Origin: a bacterium
Lineage (GTDB): Bacteria > Patescibacteriota > JABMPQ01 > JBDRIV01
Assembly: GCA_043815505.1 (NCBI GenBank)
Contig: JBDRIV010000002.1
Coordinates: 246,943-310,942 of the forward strand
Length of the DNA stretch: 64,000 nucleotides
Direction of reading: 5' to 3'
Position numbers and translations under genes: made by a program. Position 1 is the stretch's first letter. Every line of letters starts with the position of its first letter. This document shows positions 56,446 to 64,000 of the stretch, piece by piece. Under the pieces are notes generated by a model, which had not been told where the DNA came from, did no database searches, and was given only the letters and a program-made list of their open reading frames with translations.

Positions 56446-56712
56446 TTATTTTTTGGCTGTAGTTTTCTTGTTCTTATTCGGTTTTGCTTTTTTTTCTGTT
56501 TTTTTTATAGCTTCTGTTTTAGCAAAACGTTCGCGGAATTTGTCCACCATTCCGGCGGTGTCTACCAATTTTTGTTTGCCAGTATAAAAAGGATGACAAG
56601 CAGAACAAATTTCTACTTGAATGTCTTTTTGAGTTGAGCCAGTCTTGAAAGTGTTACCGCAAGCACAAGTTACAGTAGCTTCAAAGTAATCTGGATGAGT
56701 TTTTTGCTTCAT
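56446..56712 (-). CDS. rpmE: 50S ribosomal protein L31 (zinc-binding type) with a lysine-rich C-terminal tail
   Basis: [22 protein letters not shown]...[12 protein letters not shown]. Confidence 0.85.
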
Positions 56713-56768
56713 AATTAAATTCTAAATATCAAGACGAATAATATCACAGTATTTTAAGTTTGGCAAGA

Positions 56769-56867
56769 CCCGCTCCAGTTTTATAAAACTAGGCATAATT
56801 TTGTATTATATTGCTAAATAGTACTATTAAACTAAAATCTTTGAGTTCAATGAAACTGGGGCTGGGC
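56769..56867. mobile_element. Family-2 MITE-like element, copy C
   Basis: cccgctccagttttataaaact...gagttcaatgaaactggggctgggc, homologous to 2577-2674. Confidence 0.5.
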
Positions 56868-56875
56868 AAGAGTCT

Positions 56876-57124
56876 TTAATTTTGTAGGTATTCTTCGGCC
56901 AATCTTTTTACAGCCTTTTTGTCAGTTTCAGAAATGGCGTTTTGTTTGCGTAAATCCATCAAAATTTCGCGCAATTCCCAGGATGAAACTCCGCCAGAAT
57001 CAAGCTGTTTTTTTAGGGCTCCCAAAACCAATTCTCTCTCGGTTTGTTTTAGGGATGGGGCAGCGGAAATTAGGCGCCTTTCCATCTGTTTTAGCTCGTC
57101 GTAATCTATTTTACCGTCTTCCAT
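56876..57124 (-). CDS. Hypothetical small helical protein
   Basis: 82 aa. Divergent from the downstream nuclease gene. Confidence 0.35.
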   Translation of the reverse strand: MEDGKIDYDELKQMERRLISAAPSLKQTERELVLGALKKQLDSGGVSSWELREILMDLRKQNAISETDKKAVKRLAEEYLQN

Positions 57125-57234
57125 AAATTTAAGTTAATTGTGGCTAAATTATAGCAGAATAAGGGAAATTTGCTAGTTTGCACAACGTATAGATTAGCGG
57201 TAGTATATAAGCAATTAGTAAACAAATATACAAA

Positions 57235-58287
57235 ATGAATAAGGTTATTAAGACAAAGAGTGTTGGTATGGGCATAACAGAGGTCACAGAGGATTTCATT
57301 CTTTCTGAGGAGCCTATGTCTCGTCTAGTGTTTCAAGCAAAAATGCATAGCAAAGGAATAAGGGGCAGAATTGTTAGACAACGAAGAGAATCCACTAATG
57401 ATGTATGGATTTCTGAAAAAGCGATGCACATACGTGATTTGGGTAAAAATGAAACAATCAATTTAGATTTATGCACAGATGCTGTAAATAAATTATACTC
57501 AGCAATAGTTAGGCTTGCTAATATTTTGAAAGAAAAAGGAATAGAATATGGGGAAAATTCTTATGCCGTTGTTGATCCTGAGTCTATAGTTATCACCGAT
57601 AAAAATAAAGTTCAGTATATTAAAAAGATTGTTGATGCTGGACACGATGAAGATGTGTGGAGACAATTAGTTGAAGCCAATCCAACACTAGTAACAAAAC
57701 TATCGTATGCCAGAATACTTGATACAAAGAATAGCACATTAAAAGAATTAAATGATCGATTAGAGAAAGGTGGCTATCTCGAAACCTCAGGTGATGATTC
57801 ATGGCAGAAATGGATATACGATAACAATTGGTTGTTTGGAGTTAATTACAGAGATCCAATACAAAAGGAAAAAATAAACATTTCAGGAATAATGCCTGAT
57901 TATTTATTTCCAACACTAGATAATTTTGTAGACATTCTAGAAATAAAGCTTCCTCATGATGAGGTTATAGTGGCTGACTCTAGTCATCCTGGTTCTTGGA
58001 AGTTCACATTGCAAACAAATTTAGCTATTGGTCAAGTTGTAAATTATTTAGGCGAGATAGATAGATTGAGAAGAGAAATAGAACCTGAAGTAAAAAAGCA
58101 ATATGGATATGAGGTTTATTTTCTGAAGCCCCGAGCATACATTTTAATTGGTGATAGTGATAAATGGGAAGATGACAAAAAAGAAGGCTTGAGGAAATTA
58201 AATCATGCTCTTCACGGAATTGAAATTCTCACATACAGAGACCTATACGATAGAGGAAAAAGATCTTTAGAAATCAAAAATGAATGA
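57235..58287 (+). CDS. Shedu-like (DUF4263) PD-(D/E)xK nuclease, candidate antiphage defence protein
   Basis: The motif block reads DNNWLFGVNY, then MPDYLF (the D motif), then VDILEIKLP (the ExK motif), then IGQVVNY (QxxxY). I recall this order for the SduA nuclease domain. Confidence 0.5.
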   Translation: MNKVIKTKSVGMGITEVTEDFILSEEPMSRLVFQAKMHSKGIRGRIVRQRRESTNDVWISEKAMHIRDLGKNETINLDLCTDAVNKLYSAIVRLANILKEKGIEYGENSYAVVDPESIVITDKNKVQYIKKIVDAGHDEDVWRQLVEANPTLVTKLSYARILDTKNSTLKELNDRLEKGGYLETSGDDSWQKWIYDNNWLFGVNYRDPIQKEKINISGIMPDYLFPTLDNFVDILEIKLPHDEVIVADSSHPGSWKFTLQTNLAIGQVVNYLGEIDRLRREIEPEVKKQYGYEVYFLKPRAYILIGDSDKWEDDKKEGLRKLNHALHGIEILTYRDLYDRGKRSLEIKNE

Positions 58288-58741
58288 CATACTCTTAAAA
58301 TGTAATACATGTGAAAAGATATTTTCTTCTGGTATAGCAATGACCGTAGGATCTTCAGCCACTTTTGAAAACAACAAATCTCAATGTGCTTTTTGTGGTT
58401 CCATGGAAAGCATTCCTGATGGGACATTTAAATCAACTGTAAAAGGTATAATTAAAATATTAAATACAAGTGAGAATCGAAAAGAGCAGGCCGAAGAATT
58501 ATATACAGAGCTAAAGAGTGCTAGAACAAAAGAAGATTTGACCACTTTAAAGGGGTCGTCAAAACTATCAAAATTTAAGAACTGGATTCCTGATTCCCCA
58601 GAAAAAATAGCTGCATATCTTATAATAATTCAAGTGTTTATACAGCTATGTTCAAAATCACCAGAAGTTAATATTGAATACAATAATTTTGTGTCTGAAT
58701 ACAATATAGTTTTAGACAATGATAAGGAGTCTAGAAAGTGA
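58280..58741 (+). CDS. Zinc-ribbon protein, operonic partner of the Shedu-like gene
   Basis: CNTC...CAFCGS, then helical. It overlaps the upstream gene by 8 nt. Confidence 0.45.
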   Translation: MNDILLKCNTCEKIFSSGIAMTVGSSATFENNKSQCAFCGSMESIPDGTFKSTVKGIIKILNTSENRKEQAEELYTELKSARTKEDLTTLKGSSKLSKFKNWIPDSPEKIAAYLIIIQVFIQLCSKSPEVNIEYNNFVSEYNIVLDNDKESRK

Positions 58742-58795
58742 GTTTAATTGCAAAACAAGCCAAAAGGAGCCGCTATTCAAAATATACTGAAAAAC

Positions 58796-58823
58796 CTTGA
58801 CTACCATAAATTAAGTGGTATAC
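58796..58823 (+). promoter_or_regulatory. Sigma70 promoter (TTGACT-16-TATACT) for rpsB-tsf-pyrH
   Basis: Followed by the hairpin agcc-aataaaac-ggct plus TTTTT at 58833-58855 (attenuator-like). Confidence 0.4.
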
Positions 58824-58977
58824 TTATTTCTAGCCAATAAAACGGCTTTTTATTAATAACACACATTTTCTGATTGGTTGGTTCCTGCCAAAACTCTTGC
58901 AAAAGAGCGTGGTCACCAAGCAAAATGACGAAAATGTTAGCTGGGTTCAGAAAAATCACCCAATAAAGGATAAACAA

Positions 58978-59697
58978 ATGAATAAAGTAGAGAAAGTAGA
59001 AATGCTCAAAGCAGGTGTTCATTTTGGCCACAGAACTTCTAAGTGGAATCCCAAAATGGAGCCTTTTATTTTTACCAATCGCCAAGGTGTTCACATCATC
59101 GATTTGGATAAAACTGAAGAGTATTTAAATCGTGCCTTAGAATTTGTGGCACAAATTGCTGCCAAAGGTGGTACTGTTTTGTTTGTTGCAAGCAAAAGAC
59201 AGGCTAAAGATTTGGTAAAGAAAGCAGCCGAAGACTGCAACATGCCTTATGTAACAGAACGTTGGTTGGGTGGAACGTTCACTAATTTTCTAACCATTTC
59301 CAAACGCACCAGAAAATTACGCGATTTGGAAGCAGCCGAGCGAACGGGAGAACTCAAAAAATATACCAAAAAAGAACAGTTGGTGAAAAAGGAAGAGATT
59401 AAAAAATTGAATCATTTTATGGGTGGAATTAAAAATATGACCAGTCTTCCCGATGCAGTTTTCTTAATTGATGTTATAAAAGAAAAAGTGGCAGTTAGCG
59501 AAATTAAAAAAGCCAAAGTGCCTTTAATTGCTCTAATTGATACTAATGCTGATCCAGCGATTGCTGAATATCCCATTCCTTCTAATGACGACGCCATTAA
59601 AGTTATTGAGTTGATGGTTAATGCCGTGCGTGATGCTGTTAAAGACAATTTCAAAACACCAATTGTAAAAAATGATAATCAACCAAACAAAAAATAA
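58978..59697 (+). CDS. rpsB: 30S ribosomal protein S2
   Basis: Starts at MNKVEKVEMLKAGVHFGHRTSKWNPKM, not at the upstream in-frame Met. Confidence 0.9.
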   Translation: MNKVEKVEMLKAGVHFGHRTSKWNPKMEPFIFTNRQGVHIIDLDKTEEYLNRALEFVAQIAAKGGTVLFVASKRQAKDLVKKAAEDCNMPYVTERWLGGTFTNFLTISKRTRKLRDLEAAERTGELKKYTKKEQLVKKEEIKKLNHFMGGIKNMTSLPDAVFLIDVIKEKVAVSEIKKAKVPLIALIDTNADPAIAEYPIPSNDDAIKVIELMVNAVRDAVKDNFKTPIVKNDNQPNKK

Positions 59698-61773: not shown

Positions 61774-61846
61774 GCCGAAGTAGCTCAGTGGCTAGAGCAG
61801 CTGTTTTGTAAACAGCAGGTCGTGGGTTCGAATCCCACCTTCGGCT
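61774..61846 (+). tRNA. tRNA-Thr (anticodon TGT)
   Basis: GCCGAAGTAGCTCAGTGGCTAGAGCA-GCTGT-TTTGTAA-ACAGC-AGGTC-GTGGGTTCGAATCCCAC-CTTCGGC-T. Confidence 0.8.
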
Positions 61847-61854
61847 AAAATAGC

Positions 61855-61958
61855 TTATAGAAAATGGCTAATAGTTAATAGCGAATGGAATAATGTAAAT
61901 TAGGTGAAAGATCATTACAGATACAATATGCAATTAGTTATAGGCTATAAGCCAATTA
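61855..61958. repeat. Heptamer-repeat-rich spacer between the two tRNA-Thr genes
   Basis: aaaatagc|ttataga|aaatggc|taatagt|taatagc|gaatgga... and ggctataagccaattagc. Confidence 0.35.
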
Positions 61959-62033
61959 GCCGATGTAGCTCAGGGGTAGAGCAACTCCATGGTAAGGAGT
62001 AGGTCGGCGGTTCAATTCCGCCCATCGGCTCCA
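61959..62033 (+). tRNA. tRNA-Thr (anticodon GGT), CCA encoded
   Basis: GCCGATGTAGCTCAGGGGTAGAGCA-ACTCC-ATGGTAA-GGAGT-AGGTC-GGCGGTTCAATTCCGCC-CATCGGC-T-CCA. Confidence 0.8.
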
Positions 62034-62039
62034 GGAATT

Positions 62040-62108
62040 AGCATATTGCTTATAGCATGTAGCTAATAGCAAATACTATTCGCTATAAGCTATTGGTCAT
62101 AAGCCAAT
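62040..62108. repeat. Tandem heptamer repeats (tattgct|tatagca|tgtagct|aatagca|aatacta|ttcgcta|taagcta|ttggtca|taagcca)
   Basis: Nine consecutive 7-nt units. Confidence 0.5.
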
Positions 62109-62110
62109 GT

Positions 62111-62213
62111 GGGCAGGTGGCAGAGCGGTCAAATGTATCAGACTGTAAATCTGACGTCTTACGACTACGGGGGTTCTCACCCTGCGGGTGATCAGCCTTT
62201 GGCTGAGAATCCC
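62111..62213 (+). pseudogene. Pseudo-tRNA-Tyr: exact copy of tRNA-Tyr nt 1-66, then a 30-nt hairpin insert in the T-loop, then a degenerate 3' end
   Basis: 66 nt identical to 62268-62333, then TCACCCTGCGGGTGATCAGCCTTTGGCTGA, then GAATCCC, then divergence. The insert hairpin matches the one in the tRNA-Asp fragments at 1264-1388. Confidence 0.55.
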
Positions 62214-62267
62214 AATAGTAAAATAATACTAAGTGCTAATAATATAAATTCAAAATATATCTTATGT

Positions 62268-62350
62268 GGGCAGGTGGCAGAGCGGTCAAATGTATCAGAC
62301 TGTAAATCTGACGTCTTACGACTACGGGGGTTCGAATCCCTCCCTGCCCA
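62268..62350 (+). tRNA. tRNA-Tyr (anticodon GTA), long variable arm
   Basis: GGGCAGGTGGCAGAGCGGTCAAATGTATC-AGACTGTAAATCTGA-CGTCTTACGACTACG-GGGGGTTCGAATCCCTC-CCTGCCC-A. Confidence 0.85.
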
Positions 62351-62381
62351 TAGATAAATCAATTATTAGAAAGTAAATTAA

Positions 62382-62537
62382 ATGTCACAAGACAATCTAA
62401 TCAAATTTGAATGCATGGAATGCAAAAGAGTTAACTATCATTCTCAAAAGAATAAAAAAACTATCAAAGATCGTTTACACATGAACAAGTATTGTAAATG
62501 GTGCAAAAAACATACTGAACACAAAGAAACTAAATAG
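62382..62537 (+). CDS. rpmG: 50S ribosomal protein L33 (Zn-ribbon form); not in the supplied ORF track because it is under 60 aa
   Basis: [51 protein letters not shown]. It lies between tRNA-Tyr and tRNA-Trp, a classic neighbourhood. Confidence 0.75.
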
Positions 62538-62603
62538 CATATGGCTTAGGGCGTATGGTGTAGAGCACAATAAATCTATTTGTTCTTAGCTATATGCCAA
62601 TTA

Positions 62604-62677
62604 GGGAGCTTAGTTAAGTGGTATAATTGTGGACTCCAAATCCACAGTCGGGGGTTCGATTCCCTCAGCTCCTGCCA
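62604..62677 (+). tRNA. tRNA-Trp (anticodon CCA), CCA encoded
   Basis: GGGAGCTTAGTTAAGTGGTATAATT-GTGGA-CTCCAAA-TCCAC-AGTC-GGGGGTTCGATTCCCTC-AGCTCCT-G-CCA. Confidence 0.8.
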
Positions 62678-62847: not shown

Positions 62848-64000
62848 ATGAACAACCTAAAAAAATATTTAGTAGGTCACTCAGTTTTTCTTGTTTTATT
62901 TTTAATTGCTGTTCTGTTAATTGCTTTTGGAATCTGGTATGTCAATATAAAACCAGACGGGAAGTCTAGTGAATATGAATCTGTAGTCCTGACCGGCGTA
63001 CTTAATCCTGATGGTCAAATTACGTTGAATGGTCAGACAAATATCACGGGACCAATTGACATTGTTGGAAAACTTCAGCCAGATGGTACATTCTTGTTGG
63101 AAAGTGCAGATAGTGATGTGACTTTTAGTGGGACGGTGAATTTGATAGGTAATACAGAATTGAAAGAATTAGGTTACATTGGCGTAACGGATGAAATCAG
63201 CTTGACTGGCCAAGTCGGGCCAGATGGTAAGATTGGCCTGACTGGCAATATTGGCATACAAGGCCCACAAGGTCTTATTGGTTTAACGGGTGAAATCGGA
63301 CCAGGGGGTGAGGTTGGTTTAGTTGGTAGTATCGGTTCACAAGGTTCACAAGGCCCAATTGGTTTAACCGGACAGATTGGACCAGGGGGTGAGGTTGGCT
63401 TGGTTGGTCCTCAGGGCATCATTGGTTTAACCGGACAGATTGGACCAGAAGGAAAAAATGGTCTAGAAGGTGCTCAGGGTAAGATTGGTTTAACCGGACA
63501 GATTGGACCAGAAGGCGAAGTTGGTCTTACAGGTGGTTTTGGACCAGAAGGTCCAATTGGCCTGACAGGAGATATTGGCTTAACTGGCCCAATTGGCCTG
63601 ACAGGAGATATTGGTATAACTGGTGATATTGGTTCTCAAGGACCCCAGGGCGAAATCGGACCCCAAGGTACAACTGGTGACATTGGTCCTCAAGGACCCC
63701 AAGGTGCAACTGGTGACATTGGTTCTCAAGGACCCCAGGGCGAAATCGGACCCCAAGGTACAACTGGTGACATTGGTCCTCAAGGACCCCAGGGCGAAAC
63801 CGGACCTCAAGGACCCTCTAGTGGATCAGTTATAGTTGTTGGAACAACAGTCACTTCTACCCCAGTTTCTCCTATTGGATATATAATGACAGCAACTGCT
63901 TCATGCGCTCCAGACAAAAATGTATTAGGAGGAGGGGCAAAGATAACCACCACAGATTCTGCGAAAGGAAAAGTTGTTTTACGATCATCATATCCAAGTT
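62848..64000 (+). CDS. Membrane-anchored collagen-like (Gly-X-Y) repeat protein, 3'-partial (runs off the window)
   Basis: The ATG at 62848 opens a frame with no stop to nt 64000. There is an N-terminal TM, then about 250 aa of G-X-Y triplets (GLTGQIGPEGEVGLTGGFGPEGPIGLTGDIG...GPQGPQGETGPQGP). It is absent from the ORF track because it has no stop. Confidence 0.6.
   Translation, partial: MNNLKKYLVGHSVFLVLFLIAVLLIAFGIWYVNIKPDGKSSEYESVVLTGVLNPDGQITLNGQTNITGPIDIVGKLQPDGTFLLESADSDVTFSGTVNLIGNTELKELGYIGVTDEISLTGQVGPDGKIGLTGNIGIQGPQGLIGLTGEIGPGGEVGLVGSIGSQGSQGPIGLTGQIGPGGEVGLVGPQGIIGLTGQIGPEGKNGLEGAQGKIGLTGQIGPEGEVGLTGGFGPEGPIGLTGDIGLTGPIGLTGDIGITGDIGSQGPQGEIGPQGTTGDIGPQGPQGATGDIGSQGPQGEIGPQGTTGDIGPQGPQGETGPQGPSSGSVIVVGTTVTSTPVSPIGYIMTATASCAPDKNVLGGGAKITTTDSAKGKVVLRSSYPS
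63631..63800 (+). repeat. About 1.9 tandem copies of a 90-bp coding repeat in the collagen-like gene
   Basis: ggttctcaaggaccccagggcgaaatcggaccccaaggtacaactggtgacattggtcctcaaggacccca recurs at 63631 and 63721. Confidence 0.6.

Follow-up and report, generated by a model that had tools for sequence, protein, structure and literature searches.

A Shedu nuclease gene overlapping a gene for a predicted zinc-ribbon protein in a Patescibacteriota genome: probably an autonomous SduA beside a facultative cargo gene

When a Shedu nuclease gene overlaps a gene for a small protein with paired CxxC motifs, are the two genes parts of one antiphage system? The question is raised by a locus lying between rpmE and the rpsB-tsf-pyrH genes in a bacterium of the Patescibacteriota (assembly GCA_043815505.1, contig JBDRIV010000002.1, positions 246,943 to 310,942). 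The whole 64,000-nucleotide (nt) stretch that was analysed is referred to as the window, and coordinates are those of the window. The two open reading frames (ORFs) in question, designated sduA and gene X, are as follows.

57235-58287, + strand: sduA ORF, 350 aa
58280-58741, + strand: gene X ORF, 153 aa

They overlap by 8 nt (ATGAATGA, 58280-58287). An original prediction, made from the letters alone, described a Shedu-like DUF4263 nuclease and a zinc-ribbon partner, possibly a new two-component Shedu variant, and the ORFs, the overlap, the order of the nuclease motifs and the CxxC...CxxC protein were all found where it had placed them. The comparisons described below make it likely that the pair is a 1.6-kb two-gene insert consisting of an autonomous type 1A Shedu and a gene X that is facultative cargo of defence operons, not a dedicated Shedu component.

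Co-occurrence of SduA and gene X

Besides the window, 82 SduA loci were compared, 80 of them from metagenomes (retrieved with a family-alignment query) and two from genomes (retrieved with a single-protein query, and distant). At least 1 kb of flanking sequence was available on one side in 70 loci, and 12 had less than 1 kb on both sides. Six-frame ORFs of the loci were searched with a profile of 13 X homologues and with a broader profile of 59 X sequences. Neither X nor a distant X-like gene was present at any of the 82 other SduA loci, and matches were confined to the window and to the loci that had been fetched through X itself. The genes found 3' of SduA at the 82 loci are heterogeneous, and the small genes among them, checked for cryptic zinc-ribbon proteins, contain no paired CxxC motifs. 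With the genes of type I restriction-modification (R-M) systems set aside, no gene is conserved beside SduA across the 82 loci. From the side of X, SduA is present in one of the approximately eight contexts of the close X clade. Gene X is probably not a dedicated Shedu component, and the proposed two-component variant is not upheld: X homologues accompany other genes, and the co-occurrence check that had been suggested for it revealed no further pairing of X with a DUF4263 gene.

SduA loci and type I restriction-modification genes

The neighbours that recur at SduA loci are HsdS (40 loci), HsdM (30 loci), HsdR (24 loci) and RhuM (7 loci), and among the 70 loci that have 1 kb or more of flank on one side, 42 have sduA within a type I R-M operon. 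Approximately 40% of the related SduA loci are, like the window, solo. Gene order tracks the SduA clade, with hsdM-hsdS-sduA-hsdR in the clade 60-73% identical to the window protein and hsdM-sduA-hsdS-hsdR in the clade at 44-50% identity. In 7 of the SduA loci L012-L091, RhuM is inserted 3' of sduA. The presence of Shedu genes inside R-M systems has been reported previously for 602 of 5,499 genes (Gu et al.).

In the R-M-embedded loci the SduA stop codon overlaps the start of hsdR as ATGA. Overlap with the 3' gene is thus a property of the SduA cassette and not of a partnership with X and, because the cassette overlaps whatever gene comes next, the coupling seen in the window is not to be read as the mark of a two-component system; translational coupling alone is no evidence of one. 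When HsdR, HsdM, HsdS and RhuM from related loci were used as tblastn queries, nothing was found in the 64-kb window. The window sduA is a solo copy of a normally R-M-embedded cargo gene.

Identity and architecture of SduA

The C-terminal part of the 350-aa protein (aa 188-338) matches Pfam SduA_C (PF14082, DUF4263) over profile positions 5-159 of 159 with E 1.4e-17 and 64.8 bits, the gathering cutoff being 27 bits. The PADLOC SduA model PDLC00390 extends over aa 1-346 (E 4.3e-88, positions 1-335 of 339), and 12 further PADLOC SduA models also match. An identical protein from a metagenome-assembled genome (MAG) is present in NCBI under the name 'Shedu anti-phage system protein SduA domain-containing protein', and more than 500 SduA homologues were found, the best of which are approximately 349 aa long, share 62-73% identity and come from MAGs of Bacteroidota, Planctomycetota and Moraniibacteriota. 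The domains and motif blocks are arranged as follows.

aa ~18-106: N-terminal beta-sheet sensor domain (predicted)
aa ~107-187: helical linker
aa 188-338 (nt 57796-58248): DUF4263 PD-(D/E)xK nuclease domain
aa 197-205: NNWLFGVNY
aa 220-225: MPDYLF
aa 232-240: VDILEIKLP
aa 265-271: IGQVVNY

Residues D222, D233, E236, K238, Q267 and Y271 are invariant in an alignment of 25 homologues, and motifs II (D222), III (E236-x-K238) and IV (Q267) of the PD-(D/E)xK fold are all present. For the motif I glutamate, E183 is an invariant candidate that is placed without confidence. In the alignment with Bacillus cereus SduA (PDB 8ti8), motifs II, III and IV fall on the segments LVDFLY, IEIK and TQV, which on our reading contain the motif II-IV residues D249, E264/K266 and Q295 of that protein.

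The N-terminal 190 aa had been considered unrelated to any recognisable sequence. However, PDLC00390 includes them, and the SduA family profile aligns aa 17-346 with 8ti8 (E 3.8e-15). An AlphaFold2 (AF2) model built with 25 close homologues as input has a mean predicted local distance difference test score (pLDDT) of 57.8 and was used as weak support only; at this low confidence it places four beta-strands in aa 21-64 followed by a helix in aa 81-100. A Foldseek search of PDB with the model gave seven significant matches, every one a B. cereus Shedu chain, followed by weak matches to PC4 homologues (E 0.09-0.9). As judged from its sequence, the 350-aa protein is a canonical Shedu SduA nuclease, ordinary and already catalogued, and the Pfam, PADLOC, 8ti8 and Foldseek matches all bear out the original call of a Shedu-type DUF4263 nuclease. 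It is probably of type 1A, the class with an N-terminal sPC4/Whirly-like sensor domain defined by Gu et al. (bioRxiv 10.1101/2023.08.10.552793), and would share the PC4/Whirly-like N-terminal fold.

The identity of 62-73% to copies in distinct phyla, together with a G+C content slightly under that of the flanks (0.31-0.34 in the insert vs 0.35-0.41), suggests that sduA was probably acquired horizontally, as had been proposed.

Gene X and its protein family

Gene X encodes a protein with cysteines C8xxC11 and C36xxC39, predicted to form a four-cysteine zinc ribbon at the N-terminus. All 13 homologues compared retain C36 and C39, and those that cover the N-terminus all have C8 and C11. No family match was obtained in Pfam, PADLOC, NCBIfam or PHROG. 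There are 12 close, non-identical homologues (40-58% identity), and an exhaustive profile search recovered 641 cluster representatives at E<=1e-3, mostly of 150-215 aa. A C-terminal SEC-C motif (PF02810) was found in 29 of 59 sampled relatives; X from the window has no match to PF02810, and its closest relatives likewise do not have the SEC-C tail.

In the AF2 model of X (pLDDT 79.5, predicted TM score 0.63), aa 2-44 form a zinc ribbon of beta-strands, and the rest of the chain folds into six helices. The model gave no significant structural match in PDB or BFVD. Comparison with PDB sequence profiles revealed only the generic spacing of C2H2 zinc fingers and the SEC-C tail of the SecA C-terminus and YchJ. 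A hydrophobic helix lies at a conserved position, about aa 105-130 in the family and about aa 107-126 in X from the window, and may be a membrane anchor. Its median Kyte-Doolittle score over 19 residues is 1.96 in the family, with 41 of 59 relatives at 1.6 or above; the helix of X in the window scores a borderline 1.46 and is packed into the helical bundle in the AF2 model. No X was found in a scan of viral contigs or in phages by tblastn. On the conservation of its sequence, X is a real gene of an uncharacterised family.

Two further candidates for relationship to X were considered. Rugutis, a lactococcal SEC-C defence protein, was rejected, as it differs in size and has its SEC-C at the N-terminus. 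The Acinetobacter baumannii plasmid pNY5301-4 (L096, 2762 bp) includes a borderline tblastn match at 253-696 (27% identity, E 9e-4). This plasmid is tiny and non-mobilizable, and its sole annotated gene, for a hypothetical protein, overlaps the match.

Genetic contexts of gene X

In two of the close contexts, L001 (to which L002 is identical) and L004, X sits between a gene for a type I restriction endonuclease-like helicase-nuclease (R, ~850 aa) and one for a methyltransferase-specificity fusion (MS, ~800-850 aa). Gaps of 2-23 nt separate the genes, and both modules lie in defence islands, that of L001 being adjoined by PDC-S18 and that of L004 by an Old/GajA-like protein. The L001 and L004 copies of X share 66% identity, those of R 54% and those of MS 44%, so X is at least as constrained as the enzymes. 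In plasmid relatives whose R is ~50% identical (Paracoccus pPZ02 and Escherichia coli IncF plasmids), R directly adjoins the methylase gene without X, and X is therefore a facultative insert of this type I-like system. The system itself is composed of two genes, one for the R helicase-nuclease and one in which M and S are joined. R-X-MS, found in two metagenomic lineages, occupies 3434-8858 in L001 and 1286-6869 in L004, and L098 and L099 are further loci of the system; in the E. coli plasmid a gene for a TrlF-family AAA-like ATPase is located 3' of the methylase gene.

Elsewhere in the close clade, X lies 33 nt 3' of a DUF4145 gene (L006) or 4 nt 3' of a gene for a 115-aa protein of no known family (L007). 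It is stand-alone in L005, where it is convergent with a NACHT-TIR gene pair, and in L003, near priA. In L008 and L009 the SEC-C variant of X is found beside a GST gene. Distant relatives are stand-alone beside integrases and RnlAB (L092), in a region rich in TIR and toxin-antitoxin-like (PIN, DUF433) genes (L094), and in non-defence surroundings (L093 and L097). X seems to be carried facultatively by defence operons, in the way that classical type I operons carry SduA.

Extent of the insert and surrounding sequence

The remaining features of the locus are listed from left to right.

56446-56712, - strand: rpmE, with prfA farther out on the same strand
56767-56870: palindromic element of ~100 nt resembling a miniature inverted-repeat transposable element (MITE) or repetitive extragenic palindrome (REP), with termini CCCGCTCCAGTTTTATA...AAACTGGGGCTGGG, between the 82-aa gene and rpmE
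56876-57124, - strand: 82-aa ORF, function not assigned, native neighbour of rpmE
57125-57234, + strand: divergent intergenic region of 110 nt, putative sduA promoter region
58797-58824, + strand: promoter-like site before rpsB, TTGACT-16-TATACT with TG upstream, 10/12 consensus matches, sigma-70-like

To the right of gene X are rpsB-tsf-pyrH. The original prediction had included the 82-aa gene in a defence islet bounded on the left by the MITE, and neither part of this is retained. Only 2 homologues of the 82-aa protein were found in 5.8 billion proteins, one of them identical; the other (57% identity, L095), from another organism, is encoded immediately 5' of rpmE and in the same orientation. 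The gene is for this reason considered native to the rpmE neighbourhood and not cargo. Pfam, PADLOC, NCBIfam and PHROG gave no significant family match for its product. The palindromic element lies between this gene and rpmE, outside the insert. With the 82-aa gene native and the element outside, the insert comprises sduA and X only, at ~57125-58790. The right boundary stands as first proposed, the rpsB promoter being represented by the sigma-70-like site at 58797-58824, which marks the right edge of the insert.

No terminator-like site was detected between gene X and 58797-58824. The sduA promoter is presumably located in 57125-57234, to judge from the divergent arrangement of the genes, and a simple consensus scan detected no strong sigma-70 site there. 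The rpsB ORF as called mechanically extends over 58897-59697 from a TTG start at 58897. Its true start is likely the ATG at 58978 (MNKVEKVEMLKAGVHFGH), which leaves a spacer of ~235 nt from gene X that contains the promoter-like site.

At 2576-2676 there is a second copy of the palindromic element that has the same termini, with a mini-hairpin version farther on at 2779-2806, and the pattern of the element has 6 matches where 0.57 would be expected by chance. The MITE features seen within the 64 kb are thus two ~100-nt copies with shared inverted termini and one mini-hairpin. In L095, a 60-aa 'gene' at 332-514, between the homologue of the 82-aa gene and rpmE, is G+C-rich with palindromes (ccctgcggcaagccgcaggg) and is probably another repeat element rather than a gene; the spot upstream of rpmE seems to attract repeat elements in both organisms. 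Two tRNA clusters are found in the window, at 1431-2567 (3 genes) and 61774-62674 (4 genes), the first directly adjoining the element copies at 2576-2676 and 2779-2806. An ORF of at least 384 aa (62848-64000, + strand) continues beyond the end of the window and predicts a hydrophobic N-terminal segment and then a long stretch of collagen-like G-x-y repeats (GPQGPQG, GLTGxIGPxG), which account for a rise in G+C content to 45-51%.

Interpretation of the gene pair

If the insert is, as we consider likely, a self-sufficient Shedu gene followed by facultative cargo, the window SduA probably acts on its own. The mechanism below is drawn from the family, as treated in two preprints (Gu et al. bioRxiv 10.1101/2023.08.10.552793 and bioRxiv 10.1101/2023.08.10.552762). 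By analogy with B. cereus SduA, the protein would form a homotetramer in which the N-terminal PC4/Whirly-like domain and the linker would keep the PD-(D/E)xK nuclease inactive. An infection-associated nucleic-acid signal would then free the nuclease, which would cut DNA. Gene X would be co-transcribed with sduA and translationally coupled to it. With low confidence, X may be a non-enzymatic accessory that modulates or tethers DNA-targeting defence enzymes, either by means of the zinc ribbon or perhaps through a location at the membrane.

Several points weigh against this interpretation. Pfam SduA_N falls below its cutoff on SduA (E 0.022, 15.4 bits against 27 bits) and, the structural model being poor (pLDDT 57.8), the case for a PC4-like N-terminal fold comes mainly from the sequence alignment with 8ti8. 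Co-expression of X and SduA in the window is shown by their 8-nt overlap, which leaves room for a functional interaction in this organism, and a two-gene Shedu has a precedent in KELShedu (PMC12577705). The close X clade provides only ~8 independent contexts, and short sequences are common among the 82 SduA loci, so that the absence of X is firm only where downstream sequence exists.

The alternative that survives best, though on balance we doubt it, is that X is a self-contained single-gene module, such as a small abortive-infection effector anchored in the membrane or a regulator, that hitch-hikes in defence operons with no functional link to its neighbours. The wider family is mostly stand-alone, at 150-215 aa and in variable regions (L092 and L094, as well as the non-defence L093 and L097), the close homologues L003 and L005 stand alone too, and the hydrophobic helix is conserved. 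However, X is within 2-33 nt of a same-strand neighbour, or overlaps it, in 5 of the ~8 close contexts, and its better conservation relative to the flanking R and MS suggests co-function. The helix of X in the window is itself borderline and buried in a bundle by AF2, and a SEC-C zinc motif beyond a single membrane span would be unusual.

A more speculative proposal, which we regard as rather unlikely, is that X represents a new family of portable accessory proteins, built from a zinc ribbon, a hydrophobic helix and often a SEC-C tail, that join defence systems which target DNA but are otherwise unrelated (type I-like R-M, Shedu, DUF4145) and alter how these act. Such proteins might serve as a shared sensor, a membrane tether or a brake on autoimmunity. 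If this were true, the window would hold two 'R-M operon cargo' genes, SduA and X, joined as a free-standing mini-operon.

It appears improbable that SduA requires X as a sensor or regulatory subunit, in the manner of KELA in KELShedu. In favour, the 8-nt overlap indicates translational coupling, there is a precedent for a DUF4263 nuclease with a small partner that binds DNA, and X is a genuine and conserved gene whose product has a predicted zinc ribbon. Against this, X and X-like genes are missing from all 82 related SduA loci, and the close homologues of X are found beside unrelated partners. The window SduA is complete, by prediction belongs to type 1A and has a sensor domain of its own, and it shares 62-73% identity with copies that do without X. 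An overlap with the 3' gene is usual for the SduA cassette whichever gene that is, and KELA is upstream of the nuclease while X is downstream. Finally, a decaying, non-functional type I R-M remnant followed by a chance ORF would fit a 64-kb window devoid of hsd genes when most relatives are R-M-embedded, but is highly improbable given a full-length SduA ORF with all invariant family residues intact, the ~40% of related loci that are also solo, the 12 non-identical X homologues (40-58% identity) with conserved cysteines, and tblastn searches of the window that detected no methyltransferase or restriction endonuclease remnants.

Under the preferred interpretation, an autonomous SduA with X as facultative cargo, knowledge of Shedu itself gains little, as this is one more catalogued single-gene nuclease from a subfamily whose R-M embedding is already published. 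X is a side lead, being rare, well conserved and tightly packed in defence operons of different kinds. Should it prove to be a modular co-factor, it would join the small set of accessory genes shared across defence systems and merit a model in defence finders.

Comparison with known systems

The closest structural counterpart of the window SduA is the type 1A SduA of B. cereus B4264 (PDB 8ti8/8ti9), which provides its best structural matches. The predicted sensor domain, helical linker and C-terminal DUF4263 nuclease follow in the same order in both, which also share the D of motif II, the ExK of motif III and the Q of motif IV. However, identity in structural alignments is only ~16-18%, the window protein is ~30 residues shorter, and its subfamily (PDLC00390), separate and highly conserved, is found mostly inside type I R-M operons. 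Like the R-M-embedded Shedu genes of Gu et al., its closest relatives lie in R-M operons, in the arrangement hsdM-hsdS-sduA-hsdR with overlapping stop and start codons. The window copy differs in having no R-M genes within 64 kb, and X holds the downstream slot that is usually that of hsdR.

KELShedu of E. coli (KELA and KELB; PMC12577705) combines a DUF4263 nuclease with a small non-enzymatic protein in a bicistronic operon, and the window nuclease is likewise in a bicistronic operon with a small protein that may be non-enzymatic. Compared by description, the small proteins differ, KELA being ~110 aa and encoded upstream, whereas X is a 153-aa zinc-ribbon protein encoded downstream; X does not co-occur with DUF4263 at the other loci searched. 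A SEC-C motif forms the C-terminus in roughly half of the wider X family, as in small proteins with metal-binding tails of the YecA/YchJ type (PF02810). The PDB profile matches to the SecA C-terminus and YchJ cover only the tail. X from the window and its closest relatives do not carry that tail, and consist of a ribbon and helical core that is without a Pfam family or a solved or viral structural relative.

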